The notes beneath the pieces were generated by a model that worked only from the letters and a program-made list of their open reading frames with translations, was not told where the DNA came from and did no database searches. A DNA stretch of 64,000 nucleotides, taken from NCBI GenBank assembly GCA_030429735.1, contig JAUIET010000014.1:6252-70251 (forward strand). The letters run 5' to 3'. Source of the stretch: Gammaproteobacteria bacterium (GTDB lineage Bacteria > Pseudomonadota > Gammaproteobacteria > Pseudomonadales > JAUIET01). Both the position numbers and the translations under genes were made by a program. Below, in pieces: positions 1 through 27,918 of the stretch. Position 1 is the stretch's first letter. The number at the start of each line of letters is the position of its first letter.

Positions 1-277
1 CACGCGTTTCATAATCAGCCACTGCTCTGCGCAGATTCAGCTCGCCCAGTGCCGGGGAGTAATGCGTTCTGCCCACACGCATATGACTGACGGCGTTATC
101 AATGATAGGGTCTGGTGTTCTGAAATCCGGGTCACCAATGGACAGCAGCACGACATTATCACCTCGCCGGCGCATAGCCAGTGCGCGTTCGTGCACAGCC
201 CAGGCTCGCGCATTAACGTCCCCATCCAGACGCAGTGCCAGGGAACTGAACGTTCCATGAAACGGTTTGTTGTTCAT
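1..277 (-). CDS. PLP-dependent class I/II aminotransferase, AruH (arginine:pyruvate transaminase)-like; 5' part only, runs off the window
   Basis: Not in the ORF track. Manual translation from ATG at 277: MNNKPFHGTFSSLALRLDGDVNARAWAVHERALAMRRRGDNVVLLSIGDPDFRTPDPII...GRTHYSPALGELNLRRAVA. ATGA overlap with the upstream gene's stop (274-277). Confidence 0.85.
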   Translation of the reverse strand, partial: MNNKPFHGTFSSLALRLDGDVNARAWAVHERALAMRRRGDNVVLLSIGDPDFRTPDPIIDNAVSHMRVGRTHYSPALGELNLRRAVADYETR

Positions 278-1335
278 TTTGCACGTCGCACGGGGTTCAA
301 TTGAATCAAACTCAATATCTCAAACAGCATTTGCGCACCAATATGCGCAGTATTCGATGTTGGATCATATTGTGGCGCAACTTCAACAACGTCACCACCG
401 ATGATATTCGCACCCGCCATACCACGGACAATGGCCAGAGCTTCACGAGAGCTAAGCCCCCCGACTTCCGGTGTGCCAGTACCTGGGGCAAACACTGGGT
501 CTAGTCCGTCAACGTCAAAACTCACGTAACAAGGTAAATCACCAATCACTTGTCGAGCTTTCGCTATGATGCAGTCAATCCCCATTTCGGAAATTTCGTG
601 GGCACGGACAACAGTCATGCCGGACGCTTCTGAAAACTCCCAAATATATTCTGCGTTACCGCGTATCCCAATCTGTATGGTTCTTTCTGGATCCAGCACG
701 CCGTCGAGCACAGCATTTCGAAACGGTCCACCATGGTGAAATTTCTCACCTTCATACGGCCCACCGGTATCACAGTGCGCATCGATATGCACCATGCCTA
801 CTGGTGCCTTGGCGCCGACGGCTTTTAAAACTGGATGCGTCACGGAATGATCGCCACCTACAGACAAGGGCATTACACCGTCACTGAGCACGCCTTTGGT
901 AAAGTCGAAAATATCCTGATGGGATTGGCTCAGGTCAAATCGACTTTGCATAGGCACATCACCAATATCGGCGACGGCCATCTCATGTACCGGAGCACAT
1001 TTGAGCACATCGTTGTACGGACCGATTCGCTCAATAGTTCGCAGTGCTCTGGGGCCAAATCGAGCACCATTTCTGTTGGTCACACCAAGATCCATTGGAA
1101 TGCCAAACAGTGCAACATCCAGGTCACGCAGTGAGCCAGGCTCGGCGTTATATTGCCGAATTGGCGCGTCCAGCAAACTGGGTACGCCCGCATAAGGCGG
1201 CGAGCGTTTGTCACCATCGGAGAATATCATGTTGGCAATACGTTGGAAGTGGGTGTCGTGCATATCCGAACCCCCGGCGTCGCCATACAAGGCTCGCAAT
1301 CGCTCGAGTTTTTCCTGTCTTTCCTTGTCAGACAT
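274..1335 (-). CDS. ureohydrolase (agmatinase / guanidinobutyrase family)
   Basis: GGDHS, DAHCD, HHGGPF, DVDGLD and GTGTPE motifs. Start moved to ATG 1335 (GAGGT RBS upstream); the ORF track starts at 1371. Confidence 0.9.
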   Translation of the reverse strand: MSDKERQEKLERLRALYGDAGGSDMHDTHFQRIANMIFSDGDKRSPPYAGVPSLLDAPIRQYNAEPGSLRDLDVALFGIPMDLGVTNRNGARFGPRALRTIERIGPYNDVLKCAPVHEMAVADIGDVPMQSRFDLSQSHQDIFDFTKGVLSDGVMPLSVGGDHSVTHPVLKAVGAKAPVGMVHIDAHCDTGGPYEGEKFHHGGPFRNAVLDGVLDPERTIQIGIRGNAEYIWEFSEASGMTVVRAHEISEMGIDCIIAKARQVIGDLPCYVSFDVDGLDPVFAPGTGTPEVGGLSSREALAIVRGMAGANIIGGDVVEVAPQYDPTSNTAHIGAQMLFEILSLIQLNPVRRAK

Positions 1336-1395
1336 ATTTACCTCGTTAGCGTCATTCTCTGAAAGAAGCATCCACCCTCATGCACCTTCTATAGC

Positions 1396-3261
1396 TTAGC
1401 CATTGCTGGCGTTAGCGGCCAGCTCTTCGCGTATCCACTCGTTAATGCGACGCTCCAACACTGAAAGCGGCAAAGCACCGCCACTCAACACTCGGTCATG
1501 AAATGCTCTGATATCAAAGTCAGTTGCCAATGCTTGCCTGGCAAGTTCCCTTAGTTCCAGTATTTTAAGCATGCCAATCTTATAACTGGTTGCCTGCCCT
1601 GGCCAGACAATATAGCGACGCACCTCAGAACGAATACTCTCCTCCGGTTCCGGGGAGTTTGCCATGAAATACTGCACTGCTTGCTCCTCGCCCCAACCCT
1701 TGGCGTGAATACCAGTATCAACAACGAGGCGTATCGCCCGCCAGATCTCTGACGATAATTGACCAACGCGCGAGTAAGGGTCTTGATAGGCACCCATTTC
1801 ACCGGCCAGCACTTCCGAATACAAGGCCCACCCTTCTACGTATGCGGTGAAACTGGCTTGAGTTCTAAATTGCGGCACTGATTCCAGCTCCTGCGCGATG
1901 GAAATTTGCATATGGTGCCCTGGCAAGCCTTCGTGGTAGGCAATCACTTCCATTTGATTTTTAGGCATCGCGGTCATATCGGACAAATGCGCATAGTAAA
2001 TACCCGGGCGTGAGCCATCTGGAGTACCCGCGTAATAGTGCTGCGCGGCACCATCCTGCTCACGAAAGGCTTCCACGCGCTTCACTACCAGATCTGCCTT
2101 TGGCAGCAGACCGAAATAGTCCGGTAGCTGCTTCTTTATAAATGCCAGGTAGAACTCGGCGCCGTCGATATATCCTTGCCGACCTGCATCCGTATCAGGA
2201 AAGAAGAACTGCGGGTCTGTACGCACAAAAGCAAAAAAATCCTGCAAGTCGCCATCGAAGTTTACCTCGCGCATAATCTTCTCTATCTCACCGCGCAGAC
2301 GCGTGACTTCGGCCAAACCGATATTGTGGATCTCGCTCGCCGTCAATTCAGTGGTAGTGGAGGCCGCTAGTTGATGCTCATAGTAGGCTTCTCCGTCAGG
2401 AAGCGCGCCCGCACCTTTCGCCAGCTCAGCGCTCAGCTTCCTGTCGTTGCTCAACCAATCGATCAAGTGCTGGTAAGCTGGTTTGAACCTCTGCAGCAAA
2501 GCCATTTTTACCTGCGACTGATACTGCAAAGCTGTCTCATCCGAGATCAGCTCGGCCTGAAGCAGACCGGTGATTTTCGCATTAGAGCCAGACCAGAGCG
2601 GGGAATCTTCAGCGGAGTCAGGGTCAAACGGTTGCCCGGTCAATAGCTTTGTCGCCTGGTCAATCGCGCCATCGTAAGCGAAGCGTGGTGGGCGGATACC
2701 ATTGCTGGCGGCTTTTTCTGCGCGGACCTGAAGCTGCGAGATTGCATCGGCAACCGCGGCGATACGCCGGATGTACGCTTGCAGGTCGGATTCTTCTTCA
2801 ACCTTGTGAAAATTCAGAAGAAAGTTGGGCAGAAACGACTGCATACCACCCATTTGTTCGAATATGTATCCGTGCTGACTGAAACGCTGACCGGCGGCGG
2901 CTACCTCATACTGATACTTCCAGATATCGTATGAGGCTTTTGCCTCGTCACTGAGCGCCGAGTAGTCAAATGTTCGCTCCATCTCTTCAACCGATCGACG
3001 CTTCCAGTCTAATTGTTCAGCCTCAGCTTCCTCGCTGTAATCGTCAATTCGATCGTATTGTTCCTTGCGTCCCAAAAATGTAAGCGAAATAGGGCTGGTC
3101 TGAAGCTCTTGTTCGAATTTTTCGGCGAACCACGTATTCAGCCGCGCGCTTTCTGTTGCCTGCAATGACTCATTTTTACCATCGTTACTGGCAAGCGGTG
3201 TGCAGGACAGTAAGAACAGAGATAATACAGCGATGTAACAATACTTATGTACTTCTTGCAT
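1396..3261 (-). CDS. DUF885 family lipoprotein (putative metallopeptidase)
   Basis: Lipobox LLSC; HEGLPGHH, EGWALYSE, RLVVDTGIH and PGQATSYKIG motifs. Confidence 0.9.
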   Translation of the reverse strand: MQEVHKYCYIAVLSLFLLSCTPLASNDGKNESLQATESARLNTWFAEKFEQELQTSPISLTFLGRKEQYDRIDDYSEEAEAEQLDWKRRSVEEMERTFDYSALSDEAKASYDIWKYQYEVAAAGQRFSQHGYIFEQMGGMQSFLPNFLLNFHKVEEESDLQAYIRRIAAVADAISQLQVRAEKAASNGIRPPRFAYDGAIDQATKLLTGQPFDPDSAEDSPLWSGSNAKITGLLQAELISDETALQYQSQVKMALLQRFKPAYQHLIDWLSNDRKLSAELAKGAGALPDGEAYYEHQLAASTTTELTASEIHNIGLAEVTRLRGEIEKIMREVNFDGDLQDFFAFVRTDPQFFFPDTDAGRQGYIDGAEFYLAFIKKQLPDYFGLLPKADLVVKRVEAFREQDGAAQHYYAGTPDGSRPGIYYAHLSDMTAMPKNQMEVIAYHEGLPGHHMQISIAQELESVPQFRTQASFTAYVEGWALYSEVLAGEMGAYQDPYSRVGQLSSEIWRAIRLVVDTGIHAKGWGEEQAVQYFMANSPEPEESIRSEVRRYIVWPGQATSYKIGMLKILELRELARQALATDFDIRAFHDRVLSGGALPLSVLERRINEWIREELAANASNG

Positions 3262-3309
3262 GAGGTTTGATTTCCATGGGCAAAGGCGTGTATTGAAACA
3301 TTGATCTCA

Positions 3310-5478
3310 TCATTGCGCCAGTTCATCTAACGTCAGTAGACACCATGCAAGCAAATCATAAAACGTCTGTTTAATGGCTAGCCACAGCGAGTTGCCTTCT
3401 CGCATAGCATAGGCCTGATGAGCCTGATCAATAACGTATGCTTGTATTGCAAACACCCCTTCCGAATCTAACACCTGATCAAAGCGAGGCATTCCGGCAG
3501 CAACCATCATTCCATTCAATACCACTTCTTCAAAATTATCATGCCAAGCTGCATTGAGGTAGCGCAAGTCGGCAATCGAACCGTCACTGACAACGCCGGA
3601 ACCATGGCAACGATTGCAGTAACGGTGGTATAACTGCAAACCACGCTCTAACACAGCATCATCGGCTGTAAGTCTGGCGGGCGGCTTAGCATCGAATACA
3701 TCGACTTGTTTGCTTGATGGCAGCGCGGCAGCGCCATTCAGGCTGAACGCCAGAATACGGCCGTTGGCGCTGGCCGGTTTTAGATCCGAACCTGAAATCA
3801 AGCTTATGCCTCCGCCTCTGGCAACAGGAACCGAAACAAATTGCGTATCATTGACGGCGTAGCTTATCGGACTACCGACAATGCCGTTGCCAGCTTCGAA
3901 GCGAAACATCTCTGTACCGCTTTGTGCGTCGTAAGCCGTAAAAAACCCATCGATAGTTCCCTGAAACACTAACTGGCCAGCGGTACTCAACACCCCACCA
4001 TTACCAATATACGGCCGCGATACTTGCCAGGCTTTTTGCTGCGTGAGTGGATTCCAGGCCAGCAGAAAGCCATTAACAAACGCCTTCCCAAGCGTACTGT
4101 TCAGTTGTTGATTGTGCAGCGGCAAGGAGGTTTCAACGCCGGTGTTCCAAACGTTTTCTTCCATCTTGAAATTTGCCTCGGTACTCAACTCGCCGCCGAT
4201 GTGCTGGCCCGGAATGTATACCAGGCCGGTTTTTGGGCTGAATGACATGGGGTGCCAATTGTGCGAGCCGACGCCAATCGGATACACCATAAATGGCTCT
4301 GTCGGGTAATCCGCACCGGGTGTCAGCACGGGTCTGCCGCTGTCCAGATCATAATGACTGGCCCAGTTAACCCGAGTGCCAAACTTTTCAGCCGATAGCA
4401 ACTGGCCGGTTTCACGGTCCAATACGTAGAAAAAACCGGATTTTGGAGCGTGCTATAGCAGTTTGCGTGGCACGCCTTGCCAAGGCAGGTCCGCCAAAAT
4501 CATGTGTTGTGTGGCCGTGTAATCCCAGGTTTCACCGGGCACTTCCTGGTAGTGCCAAACGTACTCACCAGTGTCTGGGCGCAGTGCCAGAATGGAACAA
4601 AGAAATAGATTATCGCCACCGCCTGGGCTACGAATATGCTTGCTGTGTGGTGCACCATTGCCGACACCTACATAGAGCAGGTCCAGCTCGGGGTCGTAGG
4701 CAAGTGAATCCCATACCGTACCACCGCCACCGAACTTCCACCATTCGCCATTCCACGTTTCCGCCGCCATTGCCATTTGCGCATTTTCAAAGCCCAATGC
4801 CGGGTTACCAGGCACGGTATAAAACCGCCAAACCTGCTCACCAGTCGCTGCATCATAGGCACTGACATATCCTCGCACGCCGTATTCTGAGCCCGCGTTG
4901 CCAATGATTACCTTGCCTTTCACTACGCGGGGCGCACCCGTAATGGAGTAATTGTCGCCTTCTGGTGTGGTCTGCACTGACCAACGCTGTTCACCGGTTG
5001 CACGATCAATGGCAATCAACCTACCATCCAGGGTGCCGACAAATACGAATTCGCCCCAAACCGCAACACCTCTGTTCACCGCGCCACAACAATACTTGTA
5101 CGACTTTTCTTTCGGTACTTGCGGATCAAAGGTCCAGAGCCGGTCACCATTCTCAGCATCCAGCGCGACAACAACACTCCACGAGGCGGTCACATACATA
5201 ATGCCGTCAATAACCAGCGGCGTGGCCTGCAAACCACGTTTATCATCAAATTCATAGAACCACGCCAGGCTCAAGCGGTCGATTGTCTCCGTATTGATAT
5301 TATGCAAAGGGCTGAAGCGTTGCTCAGCATAATCACGACCGTGGGTAATCCAATTGGCAGCGTCTTTATCCGCAGTAAGCAAACGCTGATCGGTCACGGG
5401 GTGTACAAGGGCTTGCCCAGATGCGAAACTCACACCAGCAATCAGCAGCAGCGCAATAGCTGCGTAACATCGAAACAT
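3310..5478 (-). pseudogene. PQQ-dependent quinohemoprotein alcohol dehydrogenase (type II, C-terminal cytochrome c), interrupted by one in-frame TAG at 4453-4455
   Basis: ORFs 4453..5538 and 3310..4422 share a frame and read RKLL*HAPKSGFFYVLDRETG across the stop. Vicinal CC (YCCGAVNRG), WDYTATQ, heme motif CNRCH and a signal peptide from ATG 5478. Confidence 0.85.
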
Positions 5479-20781: not shown

Positions 20782-22629
20782 ATGATGAATCGAATTCTCA
20801 GTTGGTTTGAAGGCTTGGTTGACCCCTACCCCAACGAACCACCACGACAAGCGCCAGACACTCTGTTTCAGTTCTGCCGATACTTCACCCGAAGTGTCGA
20901 ACCGCTGCTGATTCTGATGGCAATACTGACCGCCCTGATCGCCATCAGCGAGGCGATGCTTTACGCTGTATTGGGCCAGCTGGTCGACTGGCTGGCGCTG
21001 CGTGACCCACAGTATTTCCTTGAACAGGAGTGGCCATTGCTGCTGGCATTCAGCGTTTTCATACTGCTTGTGATTCCTCTGCTGGTGGTGGCCAACACCT
21101 TGCTTGTACATCAAACACTGATGGGTAATTTTCCAATGATTGTCCGTTGGCAAGCGCATCGCTACTTGCTTGACCAGAGCTATTCGTTTTTCCAGCAAGA
21201 GTTTTCAGGTCGCATTGCAACCAAACTGATGCAAACAGCCCTGGCCGTGCGCGACACCGTGATGACGGTGCTGGATGTCATGGTGTTTGTGCTGGTGTAT
21301 TTTGTGACAACGCTGATACTGGTCATTAATGCGGATTGGCGCTTGTGTCTACCCATCCTTGCATGGCTTTGCTTGTACATAATGTGCCTGCGGTATTTTC
21401 TGCCAAAGCTCGAGAGTATTTCCAGTCGCCAGGCCGACGCTCGCGCCGATATGACCGGCCGAATTGTCGATAGCTATTCAAACATATTAACCTTAAAACT
21501 GTTTTCCCATTCGGAGCGCGAATCTGGCTATGCACGCAAAGCCATGCACAAATTCATGGGCACTGTGCATCCGCAGATGCGGCTGGTATCAGGGCTGGAT
21601 ATTTGTGTATGGAGCGTCAACATGTTGCTGGTGTTTACAACCGCAGCTTTCGGCCTGTACTTATGGGCCAATGCTGCAGTCTCACCGGGTGCAATAGCCA
21701 TTGCAATGGCTATTGCGATTCGCCTGACAGGCATGTCGCACTGGATAATGTGGGAAGTAAGCCAGCTGTTTGAGAACATCGGCACAATGCATGATGGCAT
21801 GAATACCTTGTCTGTTCGACAGCAAGTAGTCGACGCACCAGATGCCAAGGAGCTGCTCGTAACCAACGGTCAAATTGAGTTCCAAGACGTGAACTTCGGC
21901 TACCAAGGCGGCTCAGACAGTACTGTCGTGTTCGAAAACTTCGACTTGTCGATCGCTGCCGGTGAAAAAATTGGCCTGGTAGGGCGATCGGGTGCCGGAA
22001 AATCCACTCTCGTAAATGTGTTGCTGCGTTTCTATGACATAGATTCAGGCAACATTTGCATCGACAAGCAAAATATCGCGGGCGTTACTCAGAAAAGCTT
22101 GCGCGAAAATATTGCAACTGTTTCGCAAGACACGTCTCTTCTTCATCGCACAGTGCGCGAGAACATTATGTTCGGCCGACCCGGCGCAACTGACAGTGAG
22201 CTGTTTGCGGCTGCAAAAAAAGCACAAGCCCATGATTTCATATTGAATCTGCGCGACTCAGAAGGGAGAACCGGCTACGAAGCTCACGTAGGCGAACGTG
22301 GTGTCACCCTGTCGGGCGGGCAACGTCAGCGCATAGCCATTGCGCGAGTATTACTAAAAGATGCGCCTATTCTAATTCTGGACGAAGCCACCTCGGCATT
22401 GGACTCTGAAATCGAATCAGCCATTCAGCAGTGCCTCTACGAATTGATGGCCGGAAAAACCGTCATTGCTATCGCGCACCGACTGTCAACGATCGCCGCG
22501 ATGGACAGGTTAATCGTTCTTGATGAAGGTAGTATTGTCGAACAGGGTACTCACCAGCAGCTATTGGACAACGGCAAGGTGTACCACAATCTTTGGGCAC
22601 ATCAGTCAGGCGGTTTTTTAGGGGGCTAG
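20782..22629 (+). CDS. ABC exporter, fused permease and ATP-binding domains
   Basis: N-terminal TM domain, Walker A GRSGAGKS, LSGGQRQ signature, ILILDEAT, AHRL. Confidence 0.95.
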   Translation: MMNRILSWFEGLVDPYPNEPPRQAPDTLFQFCRYFTRSVEPLLILMAILTALIAISEAMLYAVLGQLVDWLALRDPQYFLEQEWPLLLAFSVFILLVIPLLVVANTLLVHQTLMGNFPMIVRWQAHRYLLDQSYSFFQQEFSGRIATKLMQTALAVRDTVMTVLDVMVFVLVYFVTTLILVINADWRLCLPILAWLCLYIMCLRYFLPKLESISSRQADARADMTGRIVDSYSNILTLKLFSHSERESGYARKAMHKFMGTVHPQMRLVSGLDICVWSVNMLLVFTTAAFGLYLWANAAVSPGAIAIAMAIAIRLTGMSHWIMWEVSQLFENIGTMHDGMNTLSVRQQVVDAPDAKELLVTNGQIEFQDVNFGYQGGSDSTVVFENFDLSIAAGEKIGLVGRSGAGKSTLVNVLLRFYDIDSGNICIDKQNIAGVTQKSLRENIATVSQDTSLLHRTVRENIMFGRPGATDSELFAAAKKAQAHDFILNLRDSEGRTGYEAHVGERGVTLSGGQRQRIAIARVLLKDAPILILDEATSALDSEIESAIQQCLYELMAGKTVIAIAHRLSTIAAMDRLIVLDEGSIVEQGTHQQLLDNGKVYHNLWAHQSGGFLGG

Positions 22630-22667
22630 CCCGCATTGCTCATGAACGCGCGAAGCGAAAGCGTCAA

Positions 22668-22768
22668 CAGTCTGTAAAACACGGTGTGGCGCGGACTGGA
22701 AGGCGCACAGGCGTACTTGGCAGTCCGTCGAGCACCTGGAAGGAGCACGCACCGTGTTTTATAGGCTG
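22668..22768. repeat. 101-bp palindromic (MITE-like) element with 21-bp imperfect terminal inverted repeats
   Basis: CAGTCTGTAAAACACGGTGTG ... CGCACCGTGTTTTATAGGCTG match at 18/21, and all three differences are G-U compatible. Internal AGGCGTAC-N6-GTCCGTCGAG core and two CTGGAAGG copies. Confidence 0.6.
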
Positions 22769-23430
22769 GTGGCGTTTGCAGCCGTGGGTTCATGATCAAT
22801 GCGGGCTAGCAGCTGCATTGCTGTTATAAATACAGATTCGGCCGTTACTCTTTTCGCATAGCCGTCAATAAATATCTTACCTACGATTTTTCGGTCAGCG
22901 TTGACAAGGAATATGCCTGGGTAAGGAATGCCATACGCATCATCACCAGGCGCGTACGCCTGGTCGAGAATGCCAAGCGCGTTAACACTGGTCGCATCAA
23001 TATCTGACAAAAATGGATACTCGATCCCATTTTTATCCGCGAACGACTTTTGTATCTCAGGGGCATCGTAGGTGAGTGCTACGACGCCAATGCCAGCTTC
23101 GTTAAAGTCTTTAAATTTGCTTTGCAATTGCACGAATTGCGCCATGCAGAAGGGTCACCAATCAACCGAGCGATTGGCAATAAAAATCATCCCTTTGTCT
23201 TTGATAAATTCATCAATGCGGGTAATCTCGCGCCCATCATAAATGGCTTTGATGTCGGGAAAGGGATTGTTAATGAGCATGCCCGGATCAAAATCATCGT
23301 TGTCTTCCGGAAGGTACATATCCGCCAGCATCAGATCCAACGCGGATTCCTTCAGCTGGTCTTTGAACACATAGGTCCCGGCCAGCAGCATGGCGGCAAC
23401 AGCCGCCGCAGACACCAGAATTTTGTTCAT
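22759..23430 (-). CDS. peroxiredoxin-like (AhpC/TSA, thioredoxin-fold) selenoprotein, UxxC motif, Sec at TGA 23155-23157
   Basis: ORFs 23155..23430 and 22759..23145 are in frame: FIANRSVDW-[TGA]-PFC-MAQFVQLQ, 223 aa on readthrough. N-terminal signal/anchor; downstream VVALTYD, FLSD and PYPGIFLV Prx-like motifs. Confidence 0.85.
23124..23140 (-). promoter_or_regulatory. candidate bacterial SECIS element for the Prx-like gene
   Basis: GCAAUU-CGUGC-AAUUGC hairpin 15-31 nt after the UGA, with GU in the apical loop. Confidence 0.55.
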
Positions 23431-23451
23431 GTGCTCAGTTAACTCCGCCAG

Positions 23452-24666
23452 TCATTGTTTGCTCGCAACGCGGCGCATTATGATTGGACCCAACTTGCGT
23501 TGCAGCGGACCCAACAGTTTTTTAAAACGGCCAAGCGGCGGCGTATTTTTTGACGATTCAAAACGCCGTAATTGCAGGGCTTCAGCTGCCGCATCCATCA
23601 TTGGCTGTCTCTGTGCATCTACCGGTATGCCGGTTGAATCGGCAATGCGAACCATACGCTGGAAGTTGGCCGCCACACAGGCAGCGTCTACCACCACGTC
23701 TGCACCCGCAACAGTCAATAGGGCATCGCGAGTACGTGAAAGTTCCAACTCATCTCGCGACGCGATTGCCGTTGCAAACTCCATTAGTTCACGCGCCCAC
23801 TGCAATTGACTGCTCTGTGCGGCACCCGCATGTCCATTCACCATCTGTAAATCGATCTTGGAAGCGGTTTTATCGGCACTCAAACTGAGCATCGTAGCGT
23901 GTGAGCTGGTTCAGTAAAAACACTCATTATGTGACGACACCCTGCCGGCCACCAATTCCATCTGCATTCTATTCAAGGAGCGATGCGTATCGGCAAGCAT
24001 AGTCATCATCTGTTTCATACTGAGATACTGGGCGTTCGCCACCAACATCCATTCACGGACCGCGTTGGGCACAGCGCTTAACGCACGCAGCACGTTAGCC
24101 GATCTCTGTTTTGGCCAAAGGTCACGCTCCTGTGGACCAAGGTCTTTCTCGGCAATCATCGGCACCTGCCCGGTCTCCATTGATAAACCAGGTGGCGTGT
24201 AGCGCGTTGGCTCACCTTCAACCGGGGCGGGGAGCGGCTCTCTAGGTAACCCAAGTGCGCGCATCGATTCGTCGATGCTGAATACCGTCACCGCAACCCC
24301 TATTAACTCAACCAAGGCCAAATGTGGCAGGTCGTCAGCGTTAAGAGTGTCGATATAACGTTTGGTGATCCGGGACTGGTCGGTGATAACGCGGTGCGCG
24401 GCGTCAATCGCGTTCGTGGAAATCACAGCGGCACTGCTGTCTGCGCTGTCGTGCTCACCATCGTACTGATAGGGCGACAGCGCTTGTTTTCGTTCAGCGC
24501 AAAGAGCGCAGTCAATCGCTCTGCGCGTCTCTTCCGCAATCGCCACTCTTTGTGCACCAGTCCACCAGGTGCCGGCCTCTGCTAGCGCACGCCAATACTC
24601 GCGATAAGCGAGCTTCAGATCGTCTCGAATCGCAAAAGCAGATTGTGAAAACTGGAAAGCGTGCAT
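23452..24666 (-). CDS. AhpD/carboxymuconolactone decarboxylase-like selenoprotein, CxxU motif, Sec at TGA 23911-23913
   Basis: ORFs 23911..24666 and 23452..23892 are in frame: ELVAGRVSSHNECFY-[TGA]-TSSHATMLSLS, matching AhpD E-x9-C-x-x-C-x3-H; 404 aa on readthrough. Confidence 0.85.
23874..23894 (-). promoter_or_regulatory. candidate bacterial SECIS element for the AhpD-like gene
   Basis: CG-A-UGCUCA-GUU-UGAGUG-C-CG stem-loop 17-37 nt after the UGA; the loop starts with GU. Confidence 0.55.
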
Positions 24667-24747
24667 GGCGGTGCCAGAAACTAGCTTCCGTGCACTATAG
24701 GGTCAATTTGAACCGCGGGCAAGTTCGGCAAGCATACAGAGCAGGAT

Positions 24748-25194
24748 CTACTGGAAATCCTCGGCAGTACTTTTTGCCATCTCTTCCAGGAACCAATCCG
24801 GAAACTGCGAGACAAATTTCTGCAAATCCCAGTAATCGCTCCATCGATACACTTTGCCATCTTTCATTTCGTGCATGCTCGCAAACGTATGGGCCGCTGT
24901 TTCACCCGACTTGAACGTCCAGGTTTCAGTATGGTCCAGGAACACCACGTCGCCATCTGCGGCGATGTGATGGGTTTCCTGCTCCTGTTTTTCCAGGTGG
25001 GCAAACGCGATCATCAGTCGCTTAACAGTGTTCTCTGGACCATGCGCCCCTGGATCGTCAGACGGTACATCTCGATAGTGTATTTCCGGGTGCATGCAGT
25101 CTTTCATGGTTTCCCAGTCCATGTCAGACAGTGCCCGCCACATTGTTTCAACTACTGCCTTGTTTTGTTCAGATCTGGTTTGCTTCGCTGACAT
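24748..25194 (-). CDS. NTF2/SnoaL family protein, limonene-1,2-epoxide hydrolase-like
   Basis: HHIAADGDVVFLDHTETW and HEMKDGKVYRWSDYWD motifs; GGAG RBS. Confidence 0.8.
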   Translation of the reverse strand: MSAKQTRSEQNKAVVETMWRALSDMDWETMKDCMHPEIHYRDVPSDDPGAHGPENTVKRLMIAFAHLEKQEQETHHIAADGDVVFLDHTETWTFKSGETAAHTFASMHEMKDGKVYRWSDYWDLQKFVSQFPDWFLEEMAKSTAEDFQ

Positions 25195-25310
25195 GGCTTG
25201 ATACTCCGGTGAACGCTTGTACTCGCACCTGGCATTGGTGTAAACGCAGTGTAAGGCAATGAAACTGCGAATACGATAGAATCACATGTCGAATAAGAAA
25301 GGCTGGCACA

Positions 25311-25568
25311 GTGAAAGCTATATTTTGGGGGCTGGTAACAGCGCTGTTTCTACGTTTTGGCCTTGAGCCAACGGCCTGGTTTTTTTATGAAATCAGCCAT
25401 CTTTTCAGTGTTGGCTGGCTCTATTGGGGCTATAGCGTATTCCGCGGACTGGCATTCGTACTTGATTTGTACGGCTATCACCTGATCGTCTCCCTAGCCG
25501 GAGGCCTTGTCGTAGGCTCTATTGTTGGCCTGCTATCTCGCCACTCACATTCGGAGCGTAAGACATGA
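25311..25568 (+). CDS. small hypothetical membrane protein
   Basis: 85 aa, hydrophobic, GTG start; ATGA overlap with the next gene. Confidence 0.6.
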   Translation: MKAIFWGLVTALFLRFGLEPTAWFFYEISHLFSVGWLYWGYSVFRGLAFVLDLYGYHLIVSLAGGLVVGSIVGLLSRHSHSERKT

Positions 25569-26212
25569 ATCGCCGCGAATTTTTACAGTGTGCTGCACTG
25601 CTCACAGCAGGGTCCGGTGTTGTACCTGATACCTGGGCGCTGACACTCGAACAGCAGACTTATCTGGGCGCCAGAGGCTCTTATCTTGACCGGGTAACAT
25701 TGACACTATTCTCGGGCGAGCAACGAGCGATGGTAGCTGCAATGAGCGAGCTGACCATTCCGCGCACCGATACTCCAGGAGCAATAGATGCCGGCGTTCC
25801 GCAATTTATAGAGGCCATGGTTTCGGCCTGGTTTAACGATGAAGAGCGGGCGAATTTTATGAAAGGGCTGGCTGAGCTGGACCGACGCGCAAACGGATAT
25901 CTCCGCCAGGATGCGGATCAACAGCTGGCTTTACTCGAAGCGCTTGAAGATGAAGCGTCTGACGCGGAATGGTTTCGAATGGGCAATACCATGCGCATCT
26001 GGGATTCGAATGCGCCTTTTATTTGCCAGTTCAAGGAACTGACCATTCTTGGCTTCATGTTATCTGAAACAGGTGCCAGGCAATTTCTGACACCAAACCC
26101 AATGGGGGCATTTGACGGCAGTGTCAGCTTGCAGCCGGAGCAACGCACGTATTCCACACAGACGCCCATGCGCTCAGTCAGTCCACCCATCAGTGCCGCC
26201 GAGGATTTGTAA
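25565..26212 (+). CDS. gluconate 2-dehydrogenase subunit 3 family (Tat-exported partner of GMC flavoprotein)
   Basis: Twin-arginine motif NRREFL; IPRTDTPGAIDAGVPQFI and KELTILGF motifs. Confidence 0.88.
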   Translation: MNRREFLQCAALLTAGSGVVPDTWALTLEQQTYLGARGSYLDRVTLTLFSGEQRAMVAAMSELTIPRTDTPGAIDAGVPQFIEAMVSAWFNDEERANFMKGLAELDRRANGYLRQDADQQLALLEALEDEASDAEWFRMGNTMRIWDSNAPFICQFKELTILGFMLSETGARQFLTPNPMGAFDGSVSLQPEQRTYSTQTPMRSVSPPISAAEDL

Positions 26213-27918
26213 TGCCGGAAAACAATGCAACAGAGTTTGATGCCATTGTTGTTGGCTCGGGCATTTCAGGTGGCTGGGCGGCAAAAGAGTTGACTGAGCG
26301 AGGTCTTAGAGTTCTTGTACTCGAGCGCGGCAAGAACATCGAGCACGGCAAAGATTACATTGGCGAACACGCCAACAGCTGGAATCTCGATTACTACGGC
26401 ATGCCTGACCGTGAGTTAATCGCCAGTGACTACCCCATCCAAAGCGACTCTTATGCGTTGATGGCGACCAATTTGCAGTACTGGAATAACGACCGGCTGA
26501 ATCCCTACCTACAGACCGAGGGCAAACCTTTCAGTTGGAAACGCGCTGACGTTGTAGGTGGTCGCTCACTGCTATGGGGCCGGCAAACCTACCGCTGGAG
26601 TGATGCTGATTTCAAGGCCAATGCCCGTGATGGTATTCAGATACCCTGGCCGCTTGACTACAAAGAGATAGAGCCGTGGTACAGCTACGTAGAGGAATTT
26701 GCCGGCATCAGTGGTCAGGAGGAAGGCCTGGAGCATTTACCCGACAGCAAATTCCTGCCTCCGATGGAATACTATGAACTGGAAAAAACCATAAAAAAGC
26801 GCGTCGAAAAGAAACTCGACAACGTGAAAATCACAATGGGGCGCTGTGCTGTACTGACCCGGGAACACAAGGGGCGCGCACCCTGTCACTACTGCGGTCC
26901 TTGCCACAACGGCTGCTCAACGGGTAGCTACTTTAGCTCGCAGAGTTCTACCCTGCCAGCTGCGCGAGCAACAGGAAACCTCACCTTACTGCCGAATCAA
27001 TTGGTCAGTAAGCTCGTCCACAACGACGCAGGTGACAAGATTGTTGCGGTAAACACCATTGATACTGTTAGTAAAGAACAACGAAGCTTTTCAGCAAAGC
27101 TGATTTTTTTGTGTGCGTCAACCGTTGCCAGTACCCAGATACTATTGAACTCCGCAAGTAGTTCACACCCCAATGGTCTGGCAAATGCCAGCGGCGCGCT
27201 GGGAAAATACGTGATGGACCATGGCATGATCGGCCACATGGGGATGTTTGTTGACCACCCAGATATGTATTTTAAAGGCAACCGCCCCAATGGTTTGTAC
27301 ATACCCCGCTTTCGAAACATAGGGCGACAAGACGAGGATGCCGACTTTATTCGCGGTTACGGTTATCAGGCGCATTGTCTACGCCCAGACTGGCAGACCT
27401 CGTTCAATCAGCGTGGATTTGGCGCCAAATTAAAGGAATCACTGGGCAAACCCGGTTCGTTCTGGATTTGGGCAATGGGTGGCTTCTTTGAATGTCTGCC
27501 CTACGAAAGTAACCAGATTCGATTACACCCACAGAAAACCGACCGTTTCGGCGTGCCCCTGGTCGTCACCGAATTTGACTGGGGTGACAACGAACGCAAA
27601 ATCGCGGCAGACACAGCGACACAAGCAGAAAAAATACTGCGCGCAGCTGGCTCTCTATACCATATCTTAAGTAAACCTGAACAGATGAGCGTCGGCGGTG
27701 CCGGCATTCACGAAATGGGTACCGCTCGCATGGGCGATGACCCGGGCAAGTCGGTACTGAACAAATACAATCAGGCGCATGAAGTGAGCAATCTGTTTGT
27801 TACCGATGGGTCGTTCATGACCTCAGCGTCGTGCGTCAATCCATCACTAACCTACATGGCCTTTACTGCCCGGGCGGTAGACTACGCAGTAAAACAGCTT
27901 AATGAGGGCCAGATTTAG
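26212..27918 (+). CDS. GMC family oxidoreductase (glycoside 3-dehydrogenase-like flavoprotein)
   Basis: VVGSGISGG, GGRSLLWG, Cys cluster CHYCGPCHNGC, HEMGTARMG and NPSLTYMA motifs; TAATG overlap with the upstream gene. Confidence 0.92.
   Translation: MPENNATEFDAIVVGSGISGGWAAKELTERGLRVLVLERGKNIEHGKDYIGEHANSWNLDYYGMPDRELIASDYPIQSDSYALMATNLQYWNNDRLNPYLQTEGKPFSWKRADVVGGRSLLWGRQTYRWSDADFKANARDGIQIPWPLDYKEIEPWYSYVEEFAGISGQEEGLEHLPDSKFLPPMEYYELEKTIKKRVEKKLDNVKITMGRCAVLTREHKGRAPCHYCGPCHNGCSTGSYFSSQSSTLPAARATGNLTLLPNQLVSKLVHNDAGDKIVAVNTIDTVSKEQRSFSAKLIFLCASTVASTQILLNSASSSHPNGLANASGALGKYVMDHGMIGHMGMFVDHPDMYFKGNRPNGLYIPRFRNIGRQDEDADFIRGYGYQAHCLRPDWQTSFNQRGFGAKLKESLGKPGSFWIWAMGGFFECLPYESNQIRLHPQKTDRFGVPLVVTEFDWGDNERKIAADTATQAEKILRAAGSLYHILSKPEQMSVGGAGIHEMGTARMGDDPGKSVLNKYNQAHEVSNLFVTDGSFMTSASCVNPSLTYMAFTARAVDYAVKQLNEGQI

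Follow-up and report, generated by a model that had tools for sequence, protein, structure and literature searches.

The 64-kb window analyzed here, a stretch of contig JAUIET010000014.1 of Gammaproteobacteria bacterium GCA_030429735.1 (24 contigs, 97% complete), contains a three-gene minus-strand cluster that, at a probability of roughly 0.85, includes two bona fide selenoprotein genes whose adjacency is recurrent among relatives and not obligate (Table 1). One encodes an AhpD-related protein of the NCBIfam family NF041238 and the other a peroxiredoxin-like (Prx-like) protein; a gene for a SnoaL/LEH-like protein precedes them. Each of the two frames is interrupted by one in-frame TGA, read here as selenocysteine (Sec, U), in the contexts NECFY-U-TSSHA and VDW-U-PFC, respectively. 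An initial annotation, made from the letters of the DNA alone, had described a minus-strand pair 21 bp apart with a single in-frame TGA in each gene and products of 404 and 223 amino acids (aa); all of these features are present in the sequence, and both product lengths are exact.

Selenocysteine codons and the genes to read them

Relatives of the AhpD-related gene were collected as 513 loci from species-representative genomes, and counts out of 80 refer to the best 80 of these 513. The Sec column is TGA in 80/80 loci, conservation of the protein continues past the TGA, and among 61 related genomes sampled separately 7/7 full-length matches carry one TGA. In a profile search against solved structures, U252 aligns with the second Cys of NRC[LV]YC-x-x-SH in the AhpD-like proteins 2oyo and 6k40. 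For the Prx-like gene, the U column is occupied by Cys, within WCP[YF]C, in 18/18 full-length homologs (~210 aa), and across 24 related loci the same column is TGA in 14 and TGC, TGT or AGC in 10. The AGC (Ser) codon is found in a relative (L137:1735-1806) with the motif W-S-P-W-C, an SxxC variant. The protein database also holds entries of 122-136 aa that start exactly past the Prx-like motif and correspond to split Sec forms. An in-frame UGA aligned to Cys or Sec at a redox site, the feature by which selenoprotein genes are recognized, is thus found in both genes, and each TGA falls on a redox Cys position, as the initial annotation had proposed.

The TGAs do not stem from assembly errors. 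Contigs of four runs from three studies were compared, one of the runs possibly being the source of the window DNA; all keep TGA at both positions, with no alternative letter. Run X7, from a different study, represents a diverged strain for which 28 substitutions are listed (23445-24036), most of them in the AhpD-related gene and none at the UGA.

The genome itself encodes the complete Sec machinery. Profile searches identified selA (582.5 bits), selB (347.2 bits) and selD (226 bits), and tRNA-Sec (76.7 bits) lies 165 bp downstream of selA; all four exceed their curated cut-offs. Both UGAs very probably encode Sec.

The selA and tRNA-Sec genes are adjacent on contig C1 (21958-23552) and selB lies elsewhere (C2:98590-100491), a separation that contrasts with the selA-selB pairs of several relatives. 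The SelD of this genome is a 751-aa fusion (contig C22, minus strand; L010:1405-3660) of Pyr_redox_2 (1.1e-34) and SelD/AIRS domains, and the enzyme is of the Cys type (motif H-C-A-G-C-G-S-K). A passage of the Global Ocean Sampling (GOS) paper describes Ndh-SelD fusions that have a CxxC motif.

Hairpins downstream of the UGA codons

A selenocysteine insertion sequence (SECIS) is recognized as a hairpin at short spacing past the UGA with G or U in its apical loop. The candidate in the AhpD-related gene is UGCUCA-GUU-UGAGUG (23891-23877) and that in the Prx-like gene is GCAAUU-CGUGC-AAUUGC (23140-23124). Comparative evidence is stronger for the latter. Across 10 UGA-type sequences in register, 60/60 cells are paired, and at four of the six pairs both partners vary (11 cells); sliding the partner strand as a control leaves 7-55% of cells paired. 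In a wider set of 14 UGA forms, with loops of the type CG[U/G]NN, 83/84 cells are paired. Among the Cys/Ser forms of the gene (n = 10), by contrast, 36/60 cells are paired, and none of these sequences keeps all six pairs.

The hairpin of the AhpD-related gene was followed through 79 distinct sequences, in which 89.9% of 474 cells are paired, compared with 27-59% when the partner is slid. Three cells are compensatory: at pair 36-42, 76 sequences have C-G and two have U-A, through synonymous changes of Leu and Val codons, and at pair 37-41, 35 sequences have A-U and one has C-G. The invariant Ser codon is AGY in 81/81 aligned sequences, by which the GAG of the stem is retained. We regard this hairpin as credible, its independent proof being weaker than that for the Prx-like hairpin. 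Covariation, together with the contrast between Sec and Cys forms, gives both genes a hairpin of SECIS type; neither that contrast in the Prx-like gene nor the synonymous compensation in NF041238 appears in the passages of the literature cited here.

The AhpD-related protein

The read-through translation matches the NCBIfam model NF041238 (AhpD_rel_CFYUT) over its full length (profile positions 1-357 of 357; E 3.5e-124; 414.6 bits against a cut-off of 175), and the same model scores 406.5 bits in a six-frame search of the genome. The CFYUT motif of the family is present with UGA at its U, making the window protein an ordinary member with no notable difference from the rest; the AhpD-like CxxU selenoprotein of the initial annotation is thereby borne out. 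In 38 aligned relatives, hand-picked from ~87 (L066, which has an internal stop, was left out), residues C249, F250, Y251, U252, T253 and H256 are invariant (38/38), as are C53 and C56 in the N-terminal lobe (38/38). In Pfam, the CMD family reaches 19.3 bits, under its cut-off of 23, and no other Pfam family matches at E <= 0.01. No signal sequence was found in the protein.

An AlphaFold model of the whole protein (predicted local distance difference test score, pLDDT, 91.4; predicted template modeling score, pTM, 0.92) was compared with known structures by VIA-align. The best match is human Sestrin2 (5cuf_A; Z 15.7, root-mean-square deviation 3.9, 247 aligned, residues 1-348), and single-lobe AhpD/CMD chains align at Z 8.3-13.4 over residues ~163-365. 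When the N-lobe was modeled alone (pLDDT 89.8), the top seven rows were AhpD/CMD-superfamily chains (Z 8.9-5.0), with unrelated rows at Z 4.3 or below. Because the N-lobe alone best matches AhpD/CMD chains, the protein is, as modeled, a tandem of two AhpD-like lobes with a CxxC-type motif in each. A Foldseek search against the Protein Data Bank (PDB) gave no match at E <= 0.001, AhpD-like chains heading the list at E 0.07-0.6, and an hhalign comparison of the N-lobe with the C-lobe placed CALC in register with CFYU at a level that is not significant (E 0.048, probability 1%).

The combination that characterizes the AhpD/CMD superfamily, an AhpD fold with a CxxCxxxH-type site, is found here as CxxUxxxH. 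Mycobacterium tuberculosis AhpD (1gu9) shares the AhpD fold (Z 8.3 over residues 189-348) and a CxxC/UxxxH-type center; compared with the AhpD/AhpC pair of that organism, the window protein is twice the size, has two lobes and carries Sec for Cys, and its neighbor is not an AhpC-type peroxiredoxin. Sestrin2 is alike in having two AhpD-like lobes per chain. At 11% identity, this likeness is one of architecture and not of membership, and the protein resembles the Sestrin (PA26) family in fold only. The redox motif of Sestrin2 is in the other lobe than that of the AhpD-related protein. Neither the Sestrin-like model with two lobes nor the invariance of the N-lobe CxxC is mentioned in the cited passages, and no literature search was aimed at either.

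The Prx-like protein

Pfam assigns the Prx-like protein to AhpC-TSA (PF00578; 1.6e-18, 67.3 bits against a gathering score of 26) and, less strongly, to Redoxin (1.1e-12); none of the NCBIfam models reaches its cut-off, the best scoring 30.9 bits. With the AhpC-TSA domain and Cys at the U column of homologs, the initial description of a Prx-like UxxC selenoprotein stands. In canonical peroxiredoxins the peroxidatic Cys lies in a PxxxT/SxxC motif, which is not found in this protein: in alignment with the peroxiredoxin 5xbs, D-W-U-P-F-C pairs with D-F-T-P-V-C, so that Sec replaces Thr, and Ser replaces Pro at -7. In its motifs, the protein is Prx-like and not a canonical peroxiredoxin.

W-U-P-F-C also aligns residue for residue with W-C-P-H-C of the ResA variant 3c71, and the features of ResA/TlpA-type oxidoreductases (a W-C-x-x-C site, a thioredoxin fold and an N-terminal anchor or signal) are found in the window protein, the anchor by a heuristic. 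A thioredoxin fold, a W-C-P-x-C site and an N-terminal anchor are shared with 3c71 and 1st9; the window protein differs in having Sec first, and Pfam places it nearer to AhpC/TSA. Residues 4-22 are hydrophobic (Kyte-Doolittle mean 2.15), flanked by positive charge on the N-terminal side and negative charge on the C-terminal side, a pattern common to 17/18 full-length homologs, and distant homologs have an Ala-x-Ala-like end that is typical of cleaved signals. The Prx-like domain is therefore probably extracytoplasmic, either membrane-anchored or exported, in agreement with a caveat of the initial annotation, which had set an exported or anchored Prx-like protein against a cytoplasmic AhpD-like one. 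Across the 24 loci, the Prx-like gene has no conserved neighboring gene family, cytochrome-maturation and DsbD/CcdA genes included.

Selenoproteins termed "Prx-like protein" or "Prx-like 1", with a thioredoxin-like UxxC motif, are described in passages of PMC1088965 and PMC2398784. The window protein resembles that family in its assignment to pfam00578, in a UxxC motif that begins with Sec, in its marine gammaproteobacterial setting and in the abundance of its Cys homologs. It fits the family by domain and motif, the basis of the comparison being these features and not the papers' sequences.

Gene neighborhood in relatives

Flanks of up to 4 kb were examined at each locus, and a Sec-type Prx-like gene was found in those of 8/80 AhpD-related loci, bearing out the expectation that the two genes would co-occur in relatives; a further locus (L070) has only a partial Prx-like match at its edge and is not among the eight. 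The arrangement varies. It is tandem, with the Prx-like gene downstream, in L043 and L044, which belong to the genus of the window; in L048, L060, L082 and L094 the Prx-like gene is divergent and ~0.3 kb upstream, in L047 it lies ~2 kb upstream, and in L054 it lies downstream, the opposite strand bearing another copy. The three-gene order is retained in the same-genus loci L043/L025 and L044/L027. The other 72/80 loci have no Sec-type Prx-like neighbor; the number of linked cases is a lower bound, as some contigs stop early. In two genomes (G002 and G059) both genes are present on different contigs.

The Sec machinery itself is among the recurrent neighbors, with selA in 11/80 flanks and selB in 7/80. 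Three of the eight loci (L048, L060, L082; ~100-5100) form a compact selenium island composed of selA-selB, an opposite-strand Sec-type Prx-like gene and the Sec-type AhpD-related gene. Because these loci read selA-selB, Prx-like, AhpD-related, some of the linkage between the AhpD-related and Prx-like genes is clustering around the Sec machinery. Two open reading frames (ORFs) also recur beside NF041238, one enoyl-CoA hydratase-like (12/80) and one acyl-CoA dehydrogenase-like (8/80), these names being read from the sequence and not from a scan; besides these two, selA, selB and the Prx-like gene, no other recurrent neighbor was found in the 80 loci. The recurrence of NF041238 beside selA-selB and Prx-like genes is not described in the cited passages.

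The L054 locus (162-3043), from a metagenome-assembled genome of Haliea, has an AhpD-related gene and two Prx-like genes, that is, three UGA-containing redox genes in a row. One of the Prx-like genes has the motif WUPPC, a post-UGA ORF of 329 aa and a long C-terminal extension; the copy on the other strand has WUPYC. Long WUPPC forms, with open frames of ~410 aa, are also found in L128 and L129.

The gene upstream of the pair encodes an NTF2-fold SnoaL/LEH-like protein, to judge from its Pfam matches to SnoaL_2 (1.2e-11) and LEH (9.5e-11), both over their cut-offs. The LEH score of 42.5 bits against a cut-off of 24 does not single out that family, as SnoaL_2 scores equally well. Such a gene is linked upstream of the AhpD-related gene in 4/80 loci (L042-L044 and L073), three of them in the window's genus.

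In mycobacteria, AhpD re-reduces AhpC. The initial annotation had accordingly proposed a dedicated selenium-based detoxification module, in which the Prx-like protein would depend on the AhpD-related protein for its re-reduction and the pair, possibly with the LEH-like protein, would act on peroxides or oxidized lipids. The same-strand spacing of 21 bp, free of any terminator-like site, the three-gene order of the same-genus loci and the recurrence of the Prx-like gene beside NF041238 in tandem, divergent and more distant arrangements would all be expected of such a module, and a 2026 review, in the passage cited, reads the co-location of Prx-like and AhpD-like genes as a hint of a common redox process. 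The recurrent adjacency is the part of the proposal that holds. Against it stand the 72/80 loci that lack a Sec-type Prx-like gene in their flanks; the five genomes with a Cys-type Prx-like ortholog (98-100% complete), of which 0/5 have NF041238 over the cut-off and 0/5 have selA; the absence of the canonical Prx motif from the Prx-like protein, and its apparent anchoring or export, set against an AhpD-related protein without a signal sequence; an LEH linkage nearly limited to one genus; and the three adjacent cases in selA-selB islands, which fit selenium-trait islands equally well. We consider the module unlikely. Most probably the two genes lie together because selenium-dependent redox genes are inherited or regulated jointly, an AhpD-to-Prx electron relay being the less probable explanation.

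Proposed mechanism and alternative explanations

In the interpretation that we favor, two selenoprotein genes inherited or regulated together, SelB and tRNA-Sec would read each UGA, directed by the short downstream hairpin with G or U in its loop. The AhpD-related protein would be cytoplasmic, with Sec taking the place of the second Cys in the C-lobe site C249-x-x-U252-x3-H256, and the Prx-like protein would have Sec at the attacking N-terminal position of a ResA/TlpA-type W-U92-P-F-C95 site. Each protein could cycle between selenol/thiol and selenenylsulfide forms, reducing peroxide, sulfenate or disulfide, and the N-lobe CxxC may pass electrons on to the CxxU site.

Several observations weigh against this interpretation. 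Folded as single sequences, neither hairpin is more stable than its shuffles (z +0.83 and +0.75), and an Rfam scan of 22500-25500 at E <= 1 returned no family match, so that the hairpins required comparative support; of the GU-loop hairpins that the initial annotation had placed past each TGA, both exist with covariation, and their lone folding is no better than that of shuffles. The Cys/Ser forms of the Prx-like gene retain a good part of the pairing, as noted above, which we attribute to the complementarity of the Gln and Leu codons. In the AhpD-related gene the apparent pairing could be mostly protein-driven, its core being near-invariant and lying over conserved Met-Leu ... Ser codons. The topology of the Prx-like protein is read from a hydropathy and charge heuristic only. 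Among RNA runs, none was found to contain this stretch. Lastly, eight adjacencies in at least four arrangements are far above chance for unlinked genes, and a functional link therefore cannot be dismissed.

One form that such a link might take is a dedicated relay of two selenoproteins, the Sestrin-shaped AhpD-related protein and the anchored Prx-like protein, in which electrons would pass from the N-lobe CxxC to CxxU and on to the Prx-like WUxxC at the membrane, the adjacency being functional and not a result of hitch-hiking with selA-selB. We regard this scenario as improbable. If true, the relay would give bacteria a counterpart to the sestrin-peroxiredoxin axis that has been proposed.

Decoding of the UGAs outside the Sec pathway, by a reassigned code or by near-cognate read-through to Trp, Cys or Gly, would keep both frames open just as well, with nothing specific in its favor, and is very improbable: TGA is used as a normal terminator too, as at the end of the AhpD-related gene (23452-23454), reading every TGA through fuses unrelated frames, both UGAs coincide exactly with redox Cys columns and have conserved hairpins downstream, and selA, selB, selD and tRNA-Sec are all in the genome. 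That the TGAs are true stops, in pseudogenes, split genes or as products of assembly or sequencing error, would agree with the splitting of the genes by gene callers and with the unremarkable energies of the lone hairpins, and is the least probable of all in view of the TGA column in 80/80 and 14/14 relatives with conservation beyond it, the Cys at that column in other homologs, the agreement of contigs from three studies (including a strain with 28 other substitutions) and the complete Sec machinery.

Locus layout

The features of the cluster are collected in Table 1.

Table 1. Features of the three-gene cluster, in positions of the window.
Feature	Positions	Strand	Details	Basis
SnoaL/LEH-like (NTF2-fold) gene	24748-25194	-	148 codons; first of cluster	ORF; Pfam
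AhpD-related selenoprotein gene (probable), NF041238	23452-24666	-	404 codons + stop	Read-through translation; hidden Markov model (HMM); model
Prx-like/ResA-like thiol:disulfide oxidoreductase selenoprotein gene (probable)	22759-23430	-	223 codons + stop	Translation; Pfam
Probable Sec codon UGA, AhpD-related gene	23911-23913	-	U252 of C249-F-Y-U252-x3-H256	TGA column in 80/80 loci
Probable Sec codon UGA, Prx-like gene	23155-23157	-	U92 of W-U-P-F-C95	Aligned with Cys of WCP[YF]C
SECIS-type hairpin, AhpD-related gene	23877-23891	-	22-36 nt past U of UGA; loop GUU	
SECIS-type hairpin, Prx-like gene	23124-23140	-	17-33 nt past U of UGA; loop CGUGC	
Codons of N-lobe motif	24499-24510	-	C53-A-L-C56	Invariant in 38/38 relatives
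Codons of hydrophobic segment, probable signal anchor	23365-23421	-	Prx-like residues 4-22	Hydropathy/charge heuristic
Promoter-like site between LEH-like and AhpD-related genes	24694-24722	-	Weak, not above chance	

The promoter-like site is the sole sigma-70-like match in 22500-25500, where shuffles average 2.6; the promoter/terminator scan gave a single promoter-like and a single terminator-like site, numbers below those of shuffles, and no terminator-like site between the AhpD-related and Prx-like genes. The stop of the AhpD-related gene is in frame with the Prx-like start (23431-23454), and with all TGAs read through the two would form one 658-codon frame. By arithmetic on the coordinates, the two genes occupy different frames in L043 and L044, and the shared frame therefore looks coincidental. 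When the window was crudely scanned for other redox ORFs interrupted by UGA, 49 candidates came up, mostly spurious and none convincing beyond the two described here.

On the plus strand, divergent from the cluster, 25311-27918 contains three genes. One is an 85-aa hydrophobic ORF that matches nothing in Pfam, another encodes a protein similar to gluconate 2-dehydrogenase subunit 3, its N-terminus being twin-arginine-like, and the third encodes a GMC oxidoreductase. Downstream, the gene of an ABC transporter (20782-22629) whose membrane and ATPase domains are fused converges on the cluster.

Significance for the two families

Both families have long been known from marine bacteria, and these families and their clustering are already in print. 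In a 2026 review, NF041238 is identified as the "hypothetical protein 1" described in 2005 from the Sargasso Sea selenoproteome, which in the cited part of PMC1088965 comprises four sequences with a conserved CXXU motif and is presented without functional evidence; for Prx-like and AhpD-like selenoprotein genes, the same review notes "operonic clustering" and states that their function is unknown. Because both selenoprotein families are already known, the locus is real and ordinary. Our understanding of selenoproteins is unchanged by it, and its main value is for annotation. As the initial annotation had anticipated, standard gene calls fragment both genes, and a 128-aa C-terminal fragment of the window's own Prx-like protein (P0003) stands in the protein database as a called gene. 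Since the Prx-like gene reaches no curated NCBIfam model, pipelines may go on splitting it. The four ORF fragments at this locus should be merged into two selenoprotein genes.

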